64,000 nt of DNA from Halobacteriovoraceae bacterium (GCA_963719505.1 CAVRCF010000003.1:356969-420968); one strand, 5' to 3'. Counted from the stretch's first letter, positions 30,233 through 35,158 are shown. The notes: generated by a model not told the origin, from the letters alone. Program-made: numbers and translations.

Positions 30233-30751
30233 ATGCTGCAACAATTTTTAAGACCAAAGAGATTTAAAACAAAAGAAGACTTCTTTTTTGAGTTTTTTCA
30301 AAACCCTGAACATTCTTGGATTGCCAATGATAGGTATATTAAATCAAACTTTGAAGAATTTTTTAGTCTGGTTCCTCTAAACATCTTAAGAGAGCTTTAC
30401 GGACAAGGTGATATTTGGTTTATTCCCTCTTCAGGCAAGTTTAGTTGTGCTATACAGCCAATCCGTTGCTCGATCGTTATGGTCTTTCCTGAATTTCACA
30501 AAATGTTACGCTCCTTCAGTCCTGATGATGCTTGTGCAGTATTGGCCCACGAATTAGGACATATCTTTTATAAGCACTCGGATAGAAAGTTAGATGTTTT
30601 AGAAGCACAAGTCGAAGCTGATAAGTTTGCTATCGATCTTGGTTTTGGACGCGAACTAGAGTCTTTTTTAAACACGATGCCTGAGGGATTAGAGAAGAGA
30701 GTTCGATTATCCTATTTAACCTCTCGCCACTTTGAAGCCGTCCTAGATTAA
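30233..30751 (+). CDS. M48-like zinc metallopeptidase domain protein
   Basis: AVLAHELGH (HExxH) and downstream EADKFA. Confidence 0.75.
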   Translation: MLQQFLRPKRFKTKEDFFFEFFQNPEHSWIANDRYIKSNFEEFFSLVPLNILRELYGQGDIWFIPSSGKFSCAIQPIRCSIVMVFPEFHKMLRSFSPDDACAVLAHELGHIFYKHSDRKLDVLEAQVEADKFAIDLGFGRELESFLNTMPEGLEKRVRLSYLTSRHFEAVLD

Positions 30752-31020: not shown

Positions 31021-31536
31021 ATGGGATTTTGGAATATCTTTAGCAATAAAAATTCAGCGGATTCGGCTAAAAAGTACAGCTCGCTTCATTATGAAGTCAA
31101 GGAGATGTATCCAGACATGTCTGAGGAACAGCTTATAAAAATCACTTGTATCGCTGGTCTTTTTGCCAGAGTTGCCTATGTCGACTTCTCTTTAGAAGAA
31201 TCAGAGATTGATCATATGAAGGCTGCCCTTAAAGAGATGACCGACTTTAAGGACGAGGAGATCAACAGCATTGTTGGTGTCGCCAATAAGCATATCAAAG
31301 AGCTCGCTGGTTTAGAGAATCATAAATACGTCTATTCTCTTAAAGAAGTTATGGATCAAAATGAGAGATATAAGATCATTGAAGCCCTCTTTTATGTGGC
31401 CGCTAGTGATGGAACTGTTTCAAATGATGAGTCGGAAGAAATTAGAATTATTAATAAAGGTTTTGATTTATCAGACAGACACTTCGCAGCCGCCCGAGCA
31501 AAAGTGTCGGATAAACTTGGGGCCCTAAGAGGGTAA
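31021..31536 (+). CDS. TerB/DjlA-like family protein
   Basis: ARVAYVD..EESE and FYVAASDGTVSNDESEEIRII TerB-type motifs. Confidence 0.8.
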   Translation: MGFWNIFSNKNSADSAKKYSSLHYEVKEMYPDMSEEQLIKITCIAGLFARVAYVDFSLEESEIDHMKAALKEMTDFKDEEINSIVGVANKHIKELAGLENHKYVYSLKEVMDQNERYKIIEALFYVAASDGTVSNDESEEIRIINKGFDLSDRHFAAARAKVSDKLGALRG

Positions 31537-31580
31537 AGAGTTCTTTTTGAAATCCTTGATATTATTGATATAATATTGTC

Positions 31581-33398
31581 GTGAGCGACTCAACGGTAAA
31601 GAACATTCAAAATTCAGATTTAAAATTAAAAAAGTTTAATTCACTTGATGGTTCACATCCTTTTAAAAAAGTTCTTCCAGAGGGATTTGTTGATTATAAG
31701 GCCAGGTTAAGACCTGGTGCTAAGGTAAGATATTTTAATTTCGACTTAGCAAAAGAGATGGGTCTTATACCAAAAGACCATGATCATAAATTGGATAAAG
31801 AATTAACGGAAAAAATAATTAACACCTTTGGCATTATCATCATCAATGAATTCGATATTGAAAACAAAAAAGAGTATCCCAAAAAAGAAATTAAAGATGG
31901 CTCATACATGGCCACTCGCTACCTTCAACTTCAACATAAAGACAAAAAAGGTAAGTCCTCTGGAGATGGAAGAAGTATCTGGAATGGTCGAGTCAGGCAC
32001 AATAATCAGCTATGGGATGTCTCTAGTTGTGGAACTGGAGCAACAAGACTGAGTCCAGCCACAACAAAATTTAATAAATTTTTTGAAAACGGGGATCCTT
32101 CTATCTCTTATGGCTGTGGATATGCTGAAATTGATGAGGGGATTGCACAAGCTCTCTTTAGTGAAGTTTTCTATCAAAATAATGTTCGAACGGAAAGAAC
32201 ACTTGCTGTTTTAGAATTTGAAAAAGGCTACGCTATCAACGTGCGGGCCCATCAATCTTTGTTGAGACCAAGTCACTTCTTTATGTATTTAAAACAAAAT
32301 GAAGTCGAACCTCTTAAGGATCTTCTGGATTACTATATAGAAACCCAAAGGGGATTAAAGTCTTTTGAAAACTGTCCAAAAGGTGATGGGAAATACAAAT
32401 TTTTTCTCCAATCTTTTGCCAAAGTTTTTGGACAAGTGGCAGCTACATTTGAAAATGAGTATATCTTTTGTTGGCTTGATTGGGACGGGGACAATATCTT
32501 AATGGACGGTAGTATTATTGACTACGGTTCTATCAGGCAGTTTGGGCTCTTTCACTCTGAGTACCGATACGATGATGTAGATAGATTTTCAACATCAATA
32601 CTGGAGCAACGAGATAAAGCTCGCTATATCGTTCAGACCTTTGCCCAAGTTGTTGACTATGTTCTTTGTGGAGAAAAGAAGAATATTCATGCTTTTAAAA
32701 GAGACGAAAGTCTTAAGATTTTTGATCGTGAATTTGAAAATGAAAAAAATAGAAGCTTACTTTTTAAAATTGGTTTCTCACAAAAGGAAGTGAATAGTCT
32801 TCTCAAAAATGAGATCAAAACTATTTTGCAGTATCGAAAAGTTTTTTCATATTTTGAAAGAGCAAAAAGTAAAAAGGGAATTATAAAGGTTGCTGATGGT
32901 GTCACTTGGGATGCTATTTTCTGTATAAGGGATATTCTTCGCACTTTACCCAAGCTGATTATAACAAGAAAAGAAAAAATACAAGATGAAGAGTTTATCT
33001 CAATATTGAGATCTAACTACGCGACAGATAAAGATTGCGAAATAAATCCTTACCGCAGCAAGATGATAAAGTCTTTTCAAGAGCTTTATTGGAAGCTTGT
33101 TGAACTTGTGGCAAAAAATAATAGAACCTCTTTTGAAAAACAAATTCTCGATGTCTCCATGCGATCTGCAGTCATTAATAAAATGGCAAGAGTGACAGGT
33201 GATTCGGTCTCACTTATTGTTGAGCAGCTTTTAAAAGAGCGCAATAAACTCTCGGTTGGAGAAGTTTATGATGTCATAAGAGACTTTGCTCAAATCCAAA
33301 ACTTTAATCCACTTAAAACACCTGTCGAGAACCGGGAAGTGAGCGGACTTGTTAAAAAATTCTTTGAAATTGTGAAAGATAATAGGGAAGGCTTATGA
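31581..33398 (+). CDS. Divergent SelO/YdiU-like pseudokinase (protein adenylyltransferase family)
   Basis: GDGRSI, GTGATRLS, SEVF..TERTLAV, LRPSHF and DNILMDGSIIDYG align with SelO motifs. Confidence 0.72.
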   Translation: MSDSTVKNIQNSDLKLKKFNSLDGSHPFKKVLPEGFVDYKARLRPGAKVRYFNFDLAKEMGLIPKDHDHKLDKELTEKIINTFGIIIINEFDIENKKEYPKKEIKDGSYMATRYLQLQHKDKKGKSSGDGRSIWNGRVRHNNQLWDVSSCGTGATRLSPATTKFNKFFENGDPSISYGCGYAEIDEGIAQALFSEVFYQNNVRTERTLAVLEFEKGYAINVRAHQSLLRPSHFFMYLKQNEVEPLKDLLDYYIETQRGLKSFENCPKGDGKYKFFLQSFAKVFGQVAATFENEYIFCWLDWDGDNILMDGSIIDYGSIRQFGLFHSEYRYDDVDRFSTSILEQRDKARYIVQTFAQVVDYVLCGEKKNIHAFKRDESLKIFDREFENEKNRSLLFKIGFSQKEVNSLLKNEIKTILQYRKVFSYFERAKSKKGIIKVADGVTWDAIFCIRDILRTLPKLIITRKEKIQDEEFISILRSNYATDKDCEINPYRSKMIKSFQELYWKLVELVAKNNRTSFEKQILDVSMRSAVINKMARVTGDSVSLIVEQLLKERNKLSVGEVYDVIRDFAQIQNFNPLKTPVENREVSGLVKKFFEIVKDNREGL

Positions 33399-34054
33399 GA
33401 CTCGTCTTCTACAGTGGAGGCCACGACTTTGAGAATAGTCTTTTGGATGAATCCTTATTAGGACTTGCCGGAAAAAATCCTCAAGTCACTTATATCCCTT
33501 CCTGTTCTTACCTTTGTGACCAGGACTTTCGAGAGTTTGTTGAGCAGTACGGAAAATACAATATCCATAATATTATTAATTTCCCCATCGATAATGACTA
33601 CACTGAAGTTTTAAAAGAAGAAGTTTTTAAATCTGATATTATTCATTTGTCAGGAGGGAATACTTTTTACTTTTTAAAACATCTTCGAAAGACGGGAATG
33701 TTAGCAGAGCTTAAAAAGTATGTGCGAAGTGGAGGGATTTTAACTGGTCTCTCAGCTGGCGCTATCATTATGACAAAGTCTATTGAGACGGCTTCATTTC
33801 CTGAGTTTGATCGCGATGAAAATGACGAGAATGTAAAAAACTTAAAAGCAATGGGGCTAGTGAACTTTGAGTTCTTTCCCCACTATAAAAACTCAAAACG
33901 ATATGACAAAGAGATCGCTATTTACTCGAGAAAAACGGACAAGCCAGTTTACGCTTGTCCCGATGGTAGTGGAATCGTTGTTGATCATGATAAGATTCAA
34001 TTTATTGGGAAAGCCTATTGCTTTCACCAAGGCAAAAAATTTATTTTAAAGTAG
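33395..34054 (+). CDS. Peptidase E / cyanophycinase family (S51)
   Basis: YIP, IHLSGGNT, GLSAGA nucleophile, FFPHY. Confidence 0.88.
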   Translation: MRLVFYSGGHDFENSLLDESLLGLAGKNPQVTYIPSCSYLCDQDFREFVEQYGKYNIHNIINFPIDNDYTEVLKEEVFKSDIIHLSGGNTFYFLKHLRKTGMLAELKKYVRSGGILTGLSAGAIIMTKSIETASFPEFDRDENDENVKNLKAMGLVNFEFFPHYKNSKRYDKEIAIYSRKTDKPVYACPDGSGIVVDHDKIQFIGKAYCFHQGKKFILK

Positions 34055-34060
34055 GAACTA

Positions 34061-35158
34061 ATGGCAATAACAAATGAAGACTTTGTTAAACTGGTAAAAT
34101 CGGCGGCATCAAATGGAGTCTCAGATATTCACATCCGTACCAATGAGAGACCTTGTTTTAGAATGAGAGGTGATCTTGTTCCGATCAAAGTTGATCCCTA
34201 CTCCTATGATGATGTAAGAGACATTGCTCTAATCCTAGTTAAAAGCGAAGAGAAAAAGAAAAATATAGATAATGAGAAAGAGCTTGATGGTTCGTATGCG
34301 ATTCCCAAAATTTGTCGAGTTCGTTATAATCTCTTTCGTTATCAAGGTAAGATGGGAATTATTCTTAGACTTATCAACGCTGAAATACCTACGACGGAAG
34401 CTCTTGGTATTCCGCCAATTGTAAACAAAATAGCACTGGCCCATAACGGATTAGTTTTAGTTACCGGTGCTACAGGTTCTGGGAAGTCCTCTACACTTGC
34501 GGCGATGATAAATCATATAAACAAAACGAAAGCTGTTCATATTTTAACTCTTGAAGATCCAGTTGAATATATTCACCAGCCAATTAAAGCTCGAATAACT
34601 CAAAGAGAGATTGGAGAGGATACCGATGATTTTGGTGGTGCTTTAAGGTCAGCTCTTAGACAAGATCCAGATATTATTCTGATCGGAGAAATGAGAGATG
34701 CAGAGACGATTAGTATTGCTATTAAGGCCGCAGAGACTGGACACTTAGTTTTTGGAACAGTTCATACCACTGATGCTTTAAATACTATTGGTCGACTTAT
34801 CTCTATGTTTCCACCAGAAGAGCAGGACGCAGTTAGATCAAGAATTTCCGACAACCTTTATGCAACAGTCAGCCAAAGACTTCTTAAAACCGTTGATGGA
34901 AAGGGGAGAGTCGCCGCTTTAGAGGTCATGATTACAAGCCCAGGTATCCGAGATGCTATTAACGATCCCGATACCATTGCTGAAATCTATACTTATATCG
35001 AAAAAGGTAAAAGAGGCTCTGGAACTCAAAGTTTTGATCAGCATATTACCGATCTCTACAAAGAGGGGAAGATCTCTATGGAAGAAGCTAAAGCCAGTGC
35101 AACATCGGCTGAAGATTTTGAGAGAAACCTAATGTTTGGTGGCGGAGATGATGACTAA
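34061..35158 (+). CDS. pilT: PilT/PilU-family type IV pilus retraction ATPase
   Basis: SDIHI, GATGSGKS, EDPVE, ALRQDPDIILIGEMRD, ETGHLVFGTVH. Confidence 0.88.
   Translation: MAITNEDFVKLVKSAASNGVSDIHIRTNERPCFRMRGDLVPIKVDPYSYDDVRDIALILVKSEEKKKNIDNEKELDGSYAIPKICRVRYNLFRYQGKMGIILRLINAEIPTTEALGIPPIVNKIALAHNGLVLVTGATGSGKSSTLAAMINHINKTKAVHILTLEDPVEYIHQPIKARITQREIGEDTDDFGGALRSALRQDPDIILIGEMRDAETISIAIKAAETGHLVFGTVHTTDALNTIGRLISMFPPEEQDAVRSRISDNLYATVSQRLLKTVDGKGRVAALEVMITSPGIRDAINDPDTIAEIYTYIEKGKRGSGTQSFDQHITDLYKEGKISMEEAKASATSAEDFERNLMFGGGDDD

Follow-up and report, generated by a model that had tools for sequence, protein, structure and literature searches.

A divergent SelO-fold protein of Bdellovibrionota, encoded with an S51-family hydrolase and predicted to form a complex with it

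SelO is among the most conserved of the kinase-fold enzymes, and its known chemistry, which continues to broaden, includes AMPylation and UMPylation. In the Pseudomonas syringae enzyme, Lys113 is reported to coordinate the gamma-phosphate and to be stabilised by Glu136, Arg176 and Arg183 hold the gamma-phosphate, and Asn253 and Asp262 bind the metal (PMC8097203), and in Escherichia coli YdiU, Arg87, Lys107, Arg170 and Arg177 are described as binding the phosphates, Asp119 and Gly120 as fixing the base, and Asn247 and Asp256 as binding the metal (10.1101/692707); recent reports add hydrolysis of NAD by SelO (PMC13391479). The enzymes of the S51 family, in turn, are described as amidases with a Ser-His-acid triad, the C-N amide bonds they hydrolyse being those of Asp-Xaa dipeptides, cyanophycin and Asp-phosphoramide-nucleotides: MccG, of clade V, employs a Ser133-His168-Asp196 triad to split Asp from a phosphoramide-linked nucleotide at the carboxamide bond that joins them, and PepE acts on Asp-Xaa with Ser120-His157-Glu192 (PMC9239234). 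Here we analyse a stretch of 64,000 nucleotides from a Halobacteriovoraceae bacterium (GCA_963719505.1, CAVRCF010000003.1:356969-420968; hereinafter, the window) in which a gene for a 605-residue SelO-like protein overlaps a gene for an S51-family hydrolase. An earlier note, made from the sequence alone, had tentatively read this locus as a SelO-like pseudokinase that modifies a nearby PilT ATPase, the S51 protein removing the mark, and so controls the retraction of type IV pili. We find that the protein clearly adopts the complete SelO fold, as judged from its predicted structure, that it is likely to associate with the S51 amidase, and that the two probably act together on a small molecule or peptide, rather than on PilT.

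By sequence, the connection of the 605-residue protein to SelO is thin. The Pfam SelO profile is matched by residues 104-531 at positions 63-437 of 466 with 31.8 bits (29 bits in the genome-wide scan), the NCBIfam YdiU model NF000658 yields 47.9 bits against a cut-off of 431, and the NCBIfam SelO equivalogs yield 17 and 16.5 bits against cut-offs of 850 and 900; among the PDB sequences, neither single-sequence phmmer nor a profile of 26 homologous sequences retrieved a solved SelO at E <= 1. Hence the relationship could be recognised only through Pfam, profile-profile and fold comparison together. In the profile-profile comparison, the family aligns with 16 canonical SelOs of relatives at 98.75% by hhalign (E 1.5e-16; residues 24-403 on 13-346), and with the canonical SelO of its own genome alone at 95.5%. 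The AlphaFold2 model of the protein (predicted local distance difference test, pLDDT, 87.8; predicted template modelling score, pTM, 0.89) retrieves YdiU/SelO structures as all of its best nine Foldseek matches (E ~1e-13, target TM score 0.66-0.72), the next match being at E 1e-2, and VIA superimposes model residues 12-605 on chain residues 2-475 of YdiU/SelO, with Z 32.1-32.3, 447-459 aligned residues and a root mean square deviation of 3.7-3.8, the next fold being that of the nonribosomal peptide synthetase-independent siderophore (NIS) synthetases at Z 10. The predicted structure thus is clearly that of SelO/YdiU over the whole length of the protein (PF02696; P. syringae 6EAC, E. coli YdiU 6K20, 6LNA and 9JYM; Z 32), the C-terminal domain included; because the alignment extends over the whole SelO chain, the approximately 130 extra residues are insertions in a complete SelO architecture. 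The assignment to a distinct and divergent SelO subfamily in the earlier note is accordingly borne out, faintly by sequence and plainly by profile-profile and fold comparison.

The organism also possesses a canonical SelO, a 467-residue protein encoded on another contig (C5:702006-703139; L001:1495-2898) that scores 324 bits with the Pfam SelO profile, matches E. coli YdiU structures at E 3e-77 and carries the LKGSG, HGVMNTDN and LDFG motifs. The protein encoded in the window is therefore a paralogue and not the SelO of this organism. The canonical protein ends in TFCGT, with a C-terminal Cys, and the paralogue ends in NREGL, without a Cys or selenocysteine (Sec) tail, as had been observed; of these terminal residues, R602 does not vary among the 26 close homologues, in which E603 and G604 reach at least 90% conservation, and all three vary across the phylum sample.

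So which elements of the SelO active site does this subfamily retain? Two alignments were employed, one of the 26 close database homologues of the SelO-like protein, and another of 66 rows that adds to these 40 orthologues from other families of the phylum (coded here as f4, f9 and so on). The SelO landmarks that had been recognised in the window are all present and are invariant in the 26 homologues, namely, GDGR (128-131), G151-T152-G153-x-T155, S194-E195...T204-E-R-x-L208, R229-P-S-H-F and D304-N305...D314-Y-G. The hhalign mapping yields the following equivalences:

R131: R87 of E. coli YdiU
C150: K113 of P. syringae SelO and K107 of E. coli YdiU
D172: D119 of E. coli YdiU
Q190: E136 of P. 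syringae SelO
R222 and R229: R176 and R183 of P. syringae SelO
D304 and N305: the catalytic-loop Asp-Asn
D314-Y-G: the DFG motif

Nine of these residues (R131, D172, R222, R229, D304, N305, D314, Y315 and G316) are invariant in 66 of the 66 rows. What is shared with SelO/YdiU thus comprises the GDGR Arg, the base-fixing Asp, both gamma-phosphate arginines, the catalytic-loop Asp-Asn and the DFG-type Asp. The differences are of several kinds. The segment that usually reads LKG was correctly noted to read SSCGTG in the window's protein, which places C150 at the position of the beta3 Lys; this position is occupied by Cys in 20 of the 26 close homologues, Ser in three, Gly in two and Ala in one, and in the 40 more distant members by Arg in 28 and by Cys or Ser in 12. 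The alphaC Glu position, Q190 in the window, is A, T, S, Q or C across the family and is never acidic. The subfamily, as aligned, comprises two active-site types, one with Arg and the other with a small residue at the beta3 position; in the clade of the window both the Lys of this position and the alphaC Glu of SelO are absent, and sister clades have Arg at the Lys site. Further departures from SelO/YdiU, apart from the insertions, include a longer loop at the nucleotide base, the lack of the C-terminal Cys/Sec, scores far below the NCBIfam cut-offs, a dedicated S51 partner and the catalytic loop, which, as described previously, reads WLDWDGDN instead of HGVMNTDN and so carries two additional Asp residues, D302, which is invariant, and D300, which is Asp in 65 of the 66 rows and Glu in one.

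The segment that follows the DFG-type motif is conserved to a similar extent. R319, R329, D332 and Q343 are present in 66 of the 66 rows, with one to three exceptions for R335, E342 and D331, and in the 26-sequence alignment R319, Q320, H325, E327, Y328, R329, D331, D332 and R335 of the activation-segment region are all invariant. Conservation of this degree across the phylum speaks for a functional enzyme that acts on a single fixed substrate. With its catalytic residues unchanged in every row, the protein is unlikely to be a pseudokinase in the sense of an inactive enzyme, and the conservation pattern suggests that the SelO-like protein is catalytically competent.

The second component of the system is the S51 protein. 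The two genes occupy the following positions in the window:

31581..33398, plus strand: SelO-like gene, 605 codons, GTG start (Pfam SelO 31.8 bits, cut-off 22.8)
33395..34054, plus strand: S51-family serine hydrolase, 219 residues (Pfam Peptidase_S51 112.7 bits, cut-off 23.9)

In the raw sequence, the start and stop codons overlap as ATGA at 33395-33398, and the S51 gene is translationally coupled to the SelO-like gene. This arrangement is not peculiar to the window. We inspected 80 loci from the genome collection, 40 from 14 other coded families and 16 from relatives. In the first set, 77 loci have at least 700 nt downstream of the SelO-like gene, and an S51 gene follows directly on the same strand in 76 of these, the exception being L100; the genes overlap by 4 nt in 61 of the 77 and are never more than 41 nt apart. 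Among the relatives' loci, all 16 with a full SelO-like gene, S51 is directly 3' in 15 (the exception is L019). Among the 40 loci of the other families, S51 immediately follows the SelO-like gene in f4 (1/1) and f32 (1/1), and in f14 (5/5) it precedes the SelO-like gene in the opposite orientation, at no more than 130 nt in four cases and at 2.6 kb in one; being adjacent but divergent in f14, the linkage has survived a rearrangement. No S51 gene was found within 3 kb in f9 (0/12), f13 (0/10), f23 (0/3), f17, f19, f22, f26, f30, f31, f33 or f36. Divergently oriented open reading frames (ORFs) of about 200-217 codons at the f9 loci were considered as hidden S51 genes and rejected: those at L128, L129 and L130 are without a Pfam match, and the counterpart in the f13 locus L134 is a nitroreductase. 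In two genomes in which the SelO-like gene lacks an adjacent S51 (G251 and G252), S51 orthologues are located elsewhere (E ~1e-76); among the five S51-unlinked genomes searched with the family profile, none was detected in G119 or G100, and G093 produced a weak match (E 2e-10).

In a quick tree, with branch support by the Shimodaira-Hasegawa-like approximate likelihood ratio test (SH-aLRT) only and a midpoint drawing, the S51-linked members comprise one clade of 34 rows (SH-aLRT 99) that is nested within a clade of 38 rows without a basic beta3 residue (SH-aLRT 99); the Arg-type sequences make up the remainder of the tree, and one S51-less row (L166) lies inside the S51-linked clade. The linkage appears to have arisen about once and to have been kept through four families and an inversion. 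Two observations on individual loci can be added. In L007 (positions 3-1214; genome G015), an IS605 OrfB/TnpB-type gene with a Cas12f-like TNB domain lies immediately upstream of the pair, and in L027 (5773-6177) the S51 ORF stops after 134 codons, with tblastn similarity running to residue 213, so this may be a frameshifted or broken copy.

What chemistry could the S51 protein contribute? It covers positions 4-205 of the 206 of Pfam Peptidase_S51, and reaches the cut-off of neither the PepE equivalog (59.9 bits against 156) nor cyanophycinase (33.4 bits against 126.6); its nearest solved relative is the uncharacterised Listeria protein Lmo0363 (3L4E, E 1.3e-20), followed by aspartyl dipeptidases, with cyanophycinases last. 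With MccG, PepE, cyanophycinase and Lmo0363 it shares the family, the nucleophilic Ser in the GxSAG motif and the invariant His: across 28 S51 sequences, S120 (GLSAGA) and H163 (FFPHY) are invariant and D190 is nearly so. The third residue of the triad is probably this Asp, as in MccG, an assignment by spacing alone in the published numbering (His-to-acid distance 27, compared with 28 in MccG and 35, to Glu, in PepE; PMC9239234). MccG demonstrates that aminoacyl-nucleotide conjugates are within the reach of S51 enzymes; the S51 protein of the window differs from it, and from other members of the family, in having no mcc-type cluster nearby and in being predicted to be a subunit of a complex with the SelO-like protein. 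All S51 reactions known to us are amide hydrolyses beside an aspartyl residue, and we know of none that removes the phosphodiester-linked nucleotide of an AMPylated side chain. This chemistry speaks against the part of eraser in which the S51 protein had been cast.

The complex was predicted by folding the SelO-like protein (26-row alignment) and the S51 protein (28-row alignment) together. Three runs scored 0.84, 0.84 and 0.89 (median 0.84), compared with 0.00 for the best of three controls, and agree in at least 91% of the contacts, with a partner pLDDT of 91; the score mark is reached by 116 of 157 solved complexes and by 2 of 215 mismatched pairs, a calibration that is rough only since our own alignments were used. 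In the model, the C-terminal helices of the SelO-like protein (residues 451-599) contact residues 30-92 and 142/144 of S51. The positions L461, I475, L523, M527 and V531 in this interface are 73-85% conserved in the 33 S51-linked rows of the 66-row alignment; in the 28 Arg-type rows the same positions are poorly conserved, and the commonest residues are Lys at 523, Glu at 527 and Lys at 531. In the Arg-type rows, the top residue has a mean frequency of 0.30 at interface positions and 0.49 at the other positions of 440-605; in the S51-linked rows the two values are 0.52 and 0.57. A hydrophobic patch confined to the partner-bearing clade is what a real interface predicts, and so supports the modelled one. 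The SelO-like protein and the S51 amidase are thus likely, on the strength of these models, to associate physically, and the functional tie between the two that had been surmised from the overlap of their genes receives support both from the adjacency in 76 of 77 loci and from the complex score; a SelO-S51 complex is not described as such by any PDB entry among the structure matches listed.

Taken together, these findings seem to be best accommodated if the SelO-like protein is an active nucleotide-using enzyme of the SelO fold that functions in a complex with the S51 amidase and acts on one conserved small-molecule or peptide substrate. From the conservation pattern and the structural models, we consider this interpretation probable. 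Under such a scenario, the two genes would comprise a translationally coupled unit in the clade of the window, with the S51 amidase bound to the helical C-terminal domain of its SelO-like partner. The SelO-like subunit would bind a nucleotide donor in the flipped manner of SelO and would either transfer a nucleoside monophosphate or make an acyl- or aminoacyl-nucleotide intermediate on its one invariant substrate; the bound S51 subunit would then cleave an aspartyl-type amide bond in the substrate or the product. The loss of the gamma-phosphate Lys might mark a change of the donor or the leaving group. The pair would then be a two-activity enzyme for a small molecule or peptide, rather than a regulator of PilT. 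A more specific version, which we advance tentatively, as one possibility that is itself not the likeliest outcome, is that the two subunits, instead of AMPylating many proteins, are dedicated to making or processing an amide metabolite or peptide of the aminoacyl- or aspartyl-nucleotide type, or derived from an acyl-adenylate, that would occur in predatory Bdellovibrionota, with a dinucleotide donor, for instance NAD, in place of ATP.

Precedents for some of these steps exist. Protein glutamylation by SidJ proceeds through an adenylated intermediate. This Legionella protein is described as an atypical kinase-fold enzyme (PMC6858067, PMC8548325), and it makes an amide-forming role conceivable for the SelO-like protein beside an amide-cleaving S51, a likeness that extends to the idea of the mechanism only. 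E. coli GspS (2IO7) pairs ligase and amidase activities on one small peptide conjugate, and an ATP-grasp ligase with the fold of GspS and glutathione synthetase (GSS) is the commonest neighbour of the Arg-type SelO-like members (see below); unlike in GspS, the amidase here is of the S51 rather than the CHAP type, and in the genome of the window the ATP-grasp orthologue is unlinked.

Several considerations weigh against the proposed two-subunit enzyme. The sequence similarity to SelO is weak, with Pfam about 9 bits over its cut-off, NCBIfam far under and no solved SelO matched. The pair equivalent to Lys113 and Glu136, which holds the gamma-phosphate, is missing in the clade of the window, so that the use of the nucleotide could have been altered or lost. 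The complex score expresses the confidence of the model and is not a measurement, and the predicted interface is on the C-terminal domain, off the kinase-like active site, so that coupled chemistry does not follow from it. In 33 of the 40 loci from other families, the SelO-like gene has no adjacent S51, and given that the family profile detects no orthologue in two of the five such genomes searched, S51 appears to be dispensable for the basic function of the family. Finally, the 26 database homologues in the tree are labelled S51-linked by extrapolation from the loci, and few independent evolutionary events underlie the correlations at the level of clades.

The most serious competing explanation emerges from the Arg-type clades, in which other genes surround the SelO-like gene. 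A same-strand gene for a protein of 350-400 residues is located upstream in 19 of the 28 Arg-type loci and in none of the 12 loci of the small-residue type (f13 9/10, f9 5/12, and 1/1 each in f17, f22, f26, f30 and f31; examples among L126-L165 are L133:4889-6079 and L131:4845-5888). Among PDB sequences this protein has no significant match, and in Pfam only TTL and YheCD appear, below threshold; its model (pLDDT 86) retrieves by Foldseek eukaryote-type glutathione synthetases, glutathionylspermidine synthetase and E. coli YjfC/YgiC (E 6e-15 to 1e-11), and by this structural comparison the unannotated neighbour is an ATP-grasp ligase with the glutathione-synthetase/glutathionylspermidine-synthetase fold. 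The unlinked orthologue in the genome of the window lies on another contig (L146; G000:C5:1066421-1067566; E 2e-84). In addition, an NAD-epimerase/dehydratase gene is found no more than 300 nt downstream in 12 of the 40 loci, and further off in eight more; a glutathione S-transferase (GST) gene is convergent in f23 (3/3) and f33 (1/1), and an Abhydrolase_2 gene in f9 (10/12); nitroreductase and hemerythrin genes adjoin the SelO-like gene in isolated loci. This set of neighbours suggests a chemistry of small molecules, peptides or thiols, and not the control of pili. The thiol-metabolism genes among them (the ligase in 19/28 Arg-type loci, GST in 4/4 f23 and f33 loci, and the single nitroreductase and hemerythrin), along with the reported involvement of SelO in redox homeostasis (PMC10364804), fit a redox-linked AMPylase that, like canonical SelO, would modify proteins of the thiol system, with S51 being a structural or regulatory accessory of this one clade. 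However, for that role the genome has its canonical SelO available, the near-invariant activation-segment region is more easily reconciled with a single fixed substrate than with a multitude of protein clients, and the S51 protein keeps its catalytic Ser and His and so is probably not a mere scaffold. We regard this possibility as unlikely, although clearly more probable than any of the explanations that follow.

The explanation from which the analysis set out, that the SelO-like protein AMPylates or UMPylates PilT and S51 removes the mark, depends on the genes around the pair, and this requires the remainder of the locus to be considered:

31021..31536, plus strand: TerB-domain gene, 171 residues (Pfam TerB 70 bits, cut-off 24.4)
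31547..31574, plus strand: promoter-like site, TTGAAA, 16 nt, TG-n-TATAAT, inside the 44-nt gap 5' of the SelO-like gene
34061..35158, plus strand: PilT-family type IV pilus retraction ATPase, 365 residues (TIGR01420 420.6 bits, cut-off 319.1)

According to the ORF calls, the TerB, SelO-like, S51 and pilT genes are all on the same strand and are followed by a convergent dihydrouridine-synthase gene; the raw sequence places the S51 stop codon, TAG, at 34052-34054 and the ATG of pilT at 34061, after 6 nt. The identities of the four genes, the ATGA overlap and the 6-nt gap had thus been given correctly, as ORF calls, raw sequence and family scans agree. Within the window, then, the genes are packed in an operon-like manner, a 4-nt overlap followed by a 6-nt gap, as the PilT explanation would have it; a PilT-family gene also lies downstream, on the same strand and within approximately 3 kb of the pair, in 32 of the 80 loci, and a PilT-like gene of 39% identity is located 1.35 kb from the pair at two f14 loci belonging to one genus, which is a second, weak hint of a link. 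However, PilT directly follows S51 in only seven of the 80 loci (gaps of 6-68 nt); it is 0.9-1.3 kb away in four, 1.5-2.1 kb in 18 and about 3 kb in three (46-53% identity), and 31 loci for which at least 3.3 kb of sequence is available have no such gene downstream, a further 17 loci being too short to tell. In the loci examined of the class at about 2 kb, two opposite-strand genes lie between S51 and pilT, identified by Pfam scan as Exo_endo_phos and phospholipase D (PLD)-like in L076 and L047, with the same layout in the ORF maps of L054, L067 and L088; in L082, of the class at about 3 kb, the intervening genes are a same-strand desaturase and an opposite-strand PLD gene. The opposite-strand genes make pilT a separate transcription unit in those loci. 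In the window, the PLD-like gene is still present 1.4 kb further on, and local gene loss or rearrangement within a single lineage would seem to have brought pilT into its tight position.

Outside these loci, the 40 loci of the other families, those of f9, f13 and f23 included, have no orthologous PilT gene closer than 3 kb, and this holds for all 33 S51-less loci (0/33; f9, f13, f23 and others). The amide-hydrolysing chemistry of S51 (PMC9239234) does not suit the removal of a nucleotide from PilT, and the deAMPylase reported for SelO is RNase Z (PMC12663964). The conservation of the gene neighbourhood, which the earlier note had proposed as a check, therefore extends to S51 (76/77) and not to PilT (7/80 directly adjacent, absent in 31), so the three-gene module does not hold up in relatives; PilT as the target, and with it the control of pilus retraction, is also at odds with the ATP-grasp ligase, NAD-epimerase and GST genes that adjoin the SelO-like gene in other families. 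Modification of PilT accordingly seems very unlikely. It can be added that the genome of the window has two genes over the PilT TIGR01420 cut-off. For TerB, a homologue is located upstream in 14 of the 76 loci with room, directly so in 11, so this gene is a lineage-specific neighbour outside the conserved core, and the adjacency of both PilT and TerB to the pair is probably a matter of local genome history. In the closest relatives, the TerB gene upstream of the pair is accompanied by an ORF of 172 codons with a HELGH motif (30233-30751 in the window), marginal to Peptidase_M48 at 20.5 bits (cut-off 20.3). A toxin-antitoxin or defence system was also considered and dropped, because PADLOC has no model matching TerB, the SelO-like protein or S51 and gives only generic P-loop matches for PilT; the SelO-like gene is, moreover, single-copy and vertically conserved.

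The promoter-like site matches 11 of 12 consensus positions and has the extended -10 TG, but 22 such matches are observed in the region against 17.6 expected, so this is weak evidence of a promoter. The site ends 6 nt 5' of the GTG at 31581; if used, a near-consensus extended -10 so near the GTG would imply that the transcript is leaderless or else that the start of the SelO-like gene is mis-set; the N-terminus of the protein varies in length among the homologues.

Could the SelO-like protein instead be a dead enzyme that scaffolds or regulates the S51 peptidase? The loss of the beta3 Lys/alphaC Glu pair in the clade of the window and the distance of the predicted S51 interface from the kinase-like cleft would be compatible with this. 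However, none of the 66 rows, which span approximately 36-100% identity, departs from the family at the metal ligands, the gamma-phosphate arginines, the GDGR Arg or the base-fixing Asp, and sister clades keep Arg at the Lys site; such conservation is unexpected in a dead site and renders this explanation most improbable. Equally improbable is that S51 is a housekeeping dipeptidase of no relation to the SelO-like protein, linked to it by no more than a common transcript, as might be suggested by its separate location in G251 and G252 (E ~1e-76): the adjacency in 76 of 77 loci, its occurrence in four coded families and its persistence through the f14 inversion, the complex score of 0.84 against 0.00 for the controls, and the hydrophobic interface specific to the S51-linked clade all speak against mere cohabitation.

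In the searches made so far, the SelO-like family is found mainly in Bdellovibrionota. A word-indexed search returns 3512 proteins at E <= 1e-3, of which the named matches are 'hypothetical', 'YdiU (UPF0061)' or 'SelO family' proteins of Bacteriovoracaceae or Halobacteriovorax; a profile search of 1.84 billion cluster representatives yields 585 matches at E <= 1e-3 and 207 at E <= 1e-30, and the nearest ESM-Atlas clusters are all labelled Bdellovibrionota, which is a lead only. At least 593 species-level genomes encode a relative of the SelO-like protein. In an even sample of the phylum, the family is present in 133 of 301 genomes at E <= 1e-30 (f1 57/67, f9 25/35, f13 16/18, f4 9/20, f14 7/34, f23 6/6), as a single-copy and vertically conserved gene.

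Some observations on this distribution stand by themselves. Close homologues with 50-53% identity are found in L040 and L100, on contigs labelled as Flavobacteriaceae and Nitrospirales metagenome-assembled genomes; these odd labels, the second locus being the only one without S51, may mean mis-binning, mislabelling or gene transfer. A third SelO-like lineage, of about 570-610 residues, is present in relatives (L123:1171-3003 in G012 and L122:649-2355 in G004) and scores 45-50 bits with Pfam SelO; the L123 member aligns with the SelO-like family at 98.4% by hhalign, keeps the beta3 Lys (LKGTG) and has PTAGN in place of NTDN, and the L122 member is convergent to a PP2C-phosphatase ORF.

The membership of these proteins in the SelO superfamily as such is not new, given that some of them are already automatically annotated as 'SelO family' or 'YdiU (UPF0061)'. 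In the literature, nothing relevant appeared among the matches listed for SelO paired with S51, peptidase E or cyanophycinase, and there was none among those listed that joins Bdellovibrio with YdiU/UPF0061/SelO or with a SelO pseudokinase. The subfamily is uncharacterised, and we found no publication on it or on the SelO-S51 pairing.

In evolutionary terms, what emerges is a compact, very strongly conserved sister family of SelO with two active-site types and a predicted obligate amidase subunit. The coexistence of the two types provides a natural experiment on the retuning of the site in which the nucleotide is bound in the flipped orientation. If the substrate of the pair is indeed a small molecule or peptide, a family that has been thought of as a modifier of proteins would gain a metabolic role. 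The pair might also bear on the biology of bacterial predators and, should the proposed function be correct, would represent a new use of the SelO fold.

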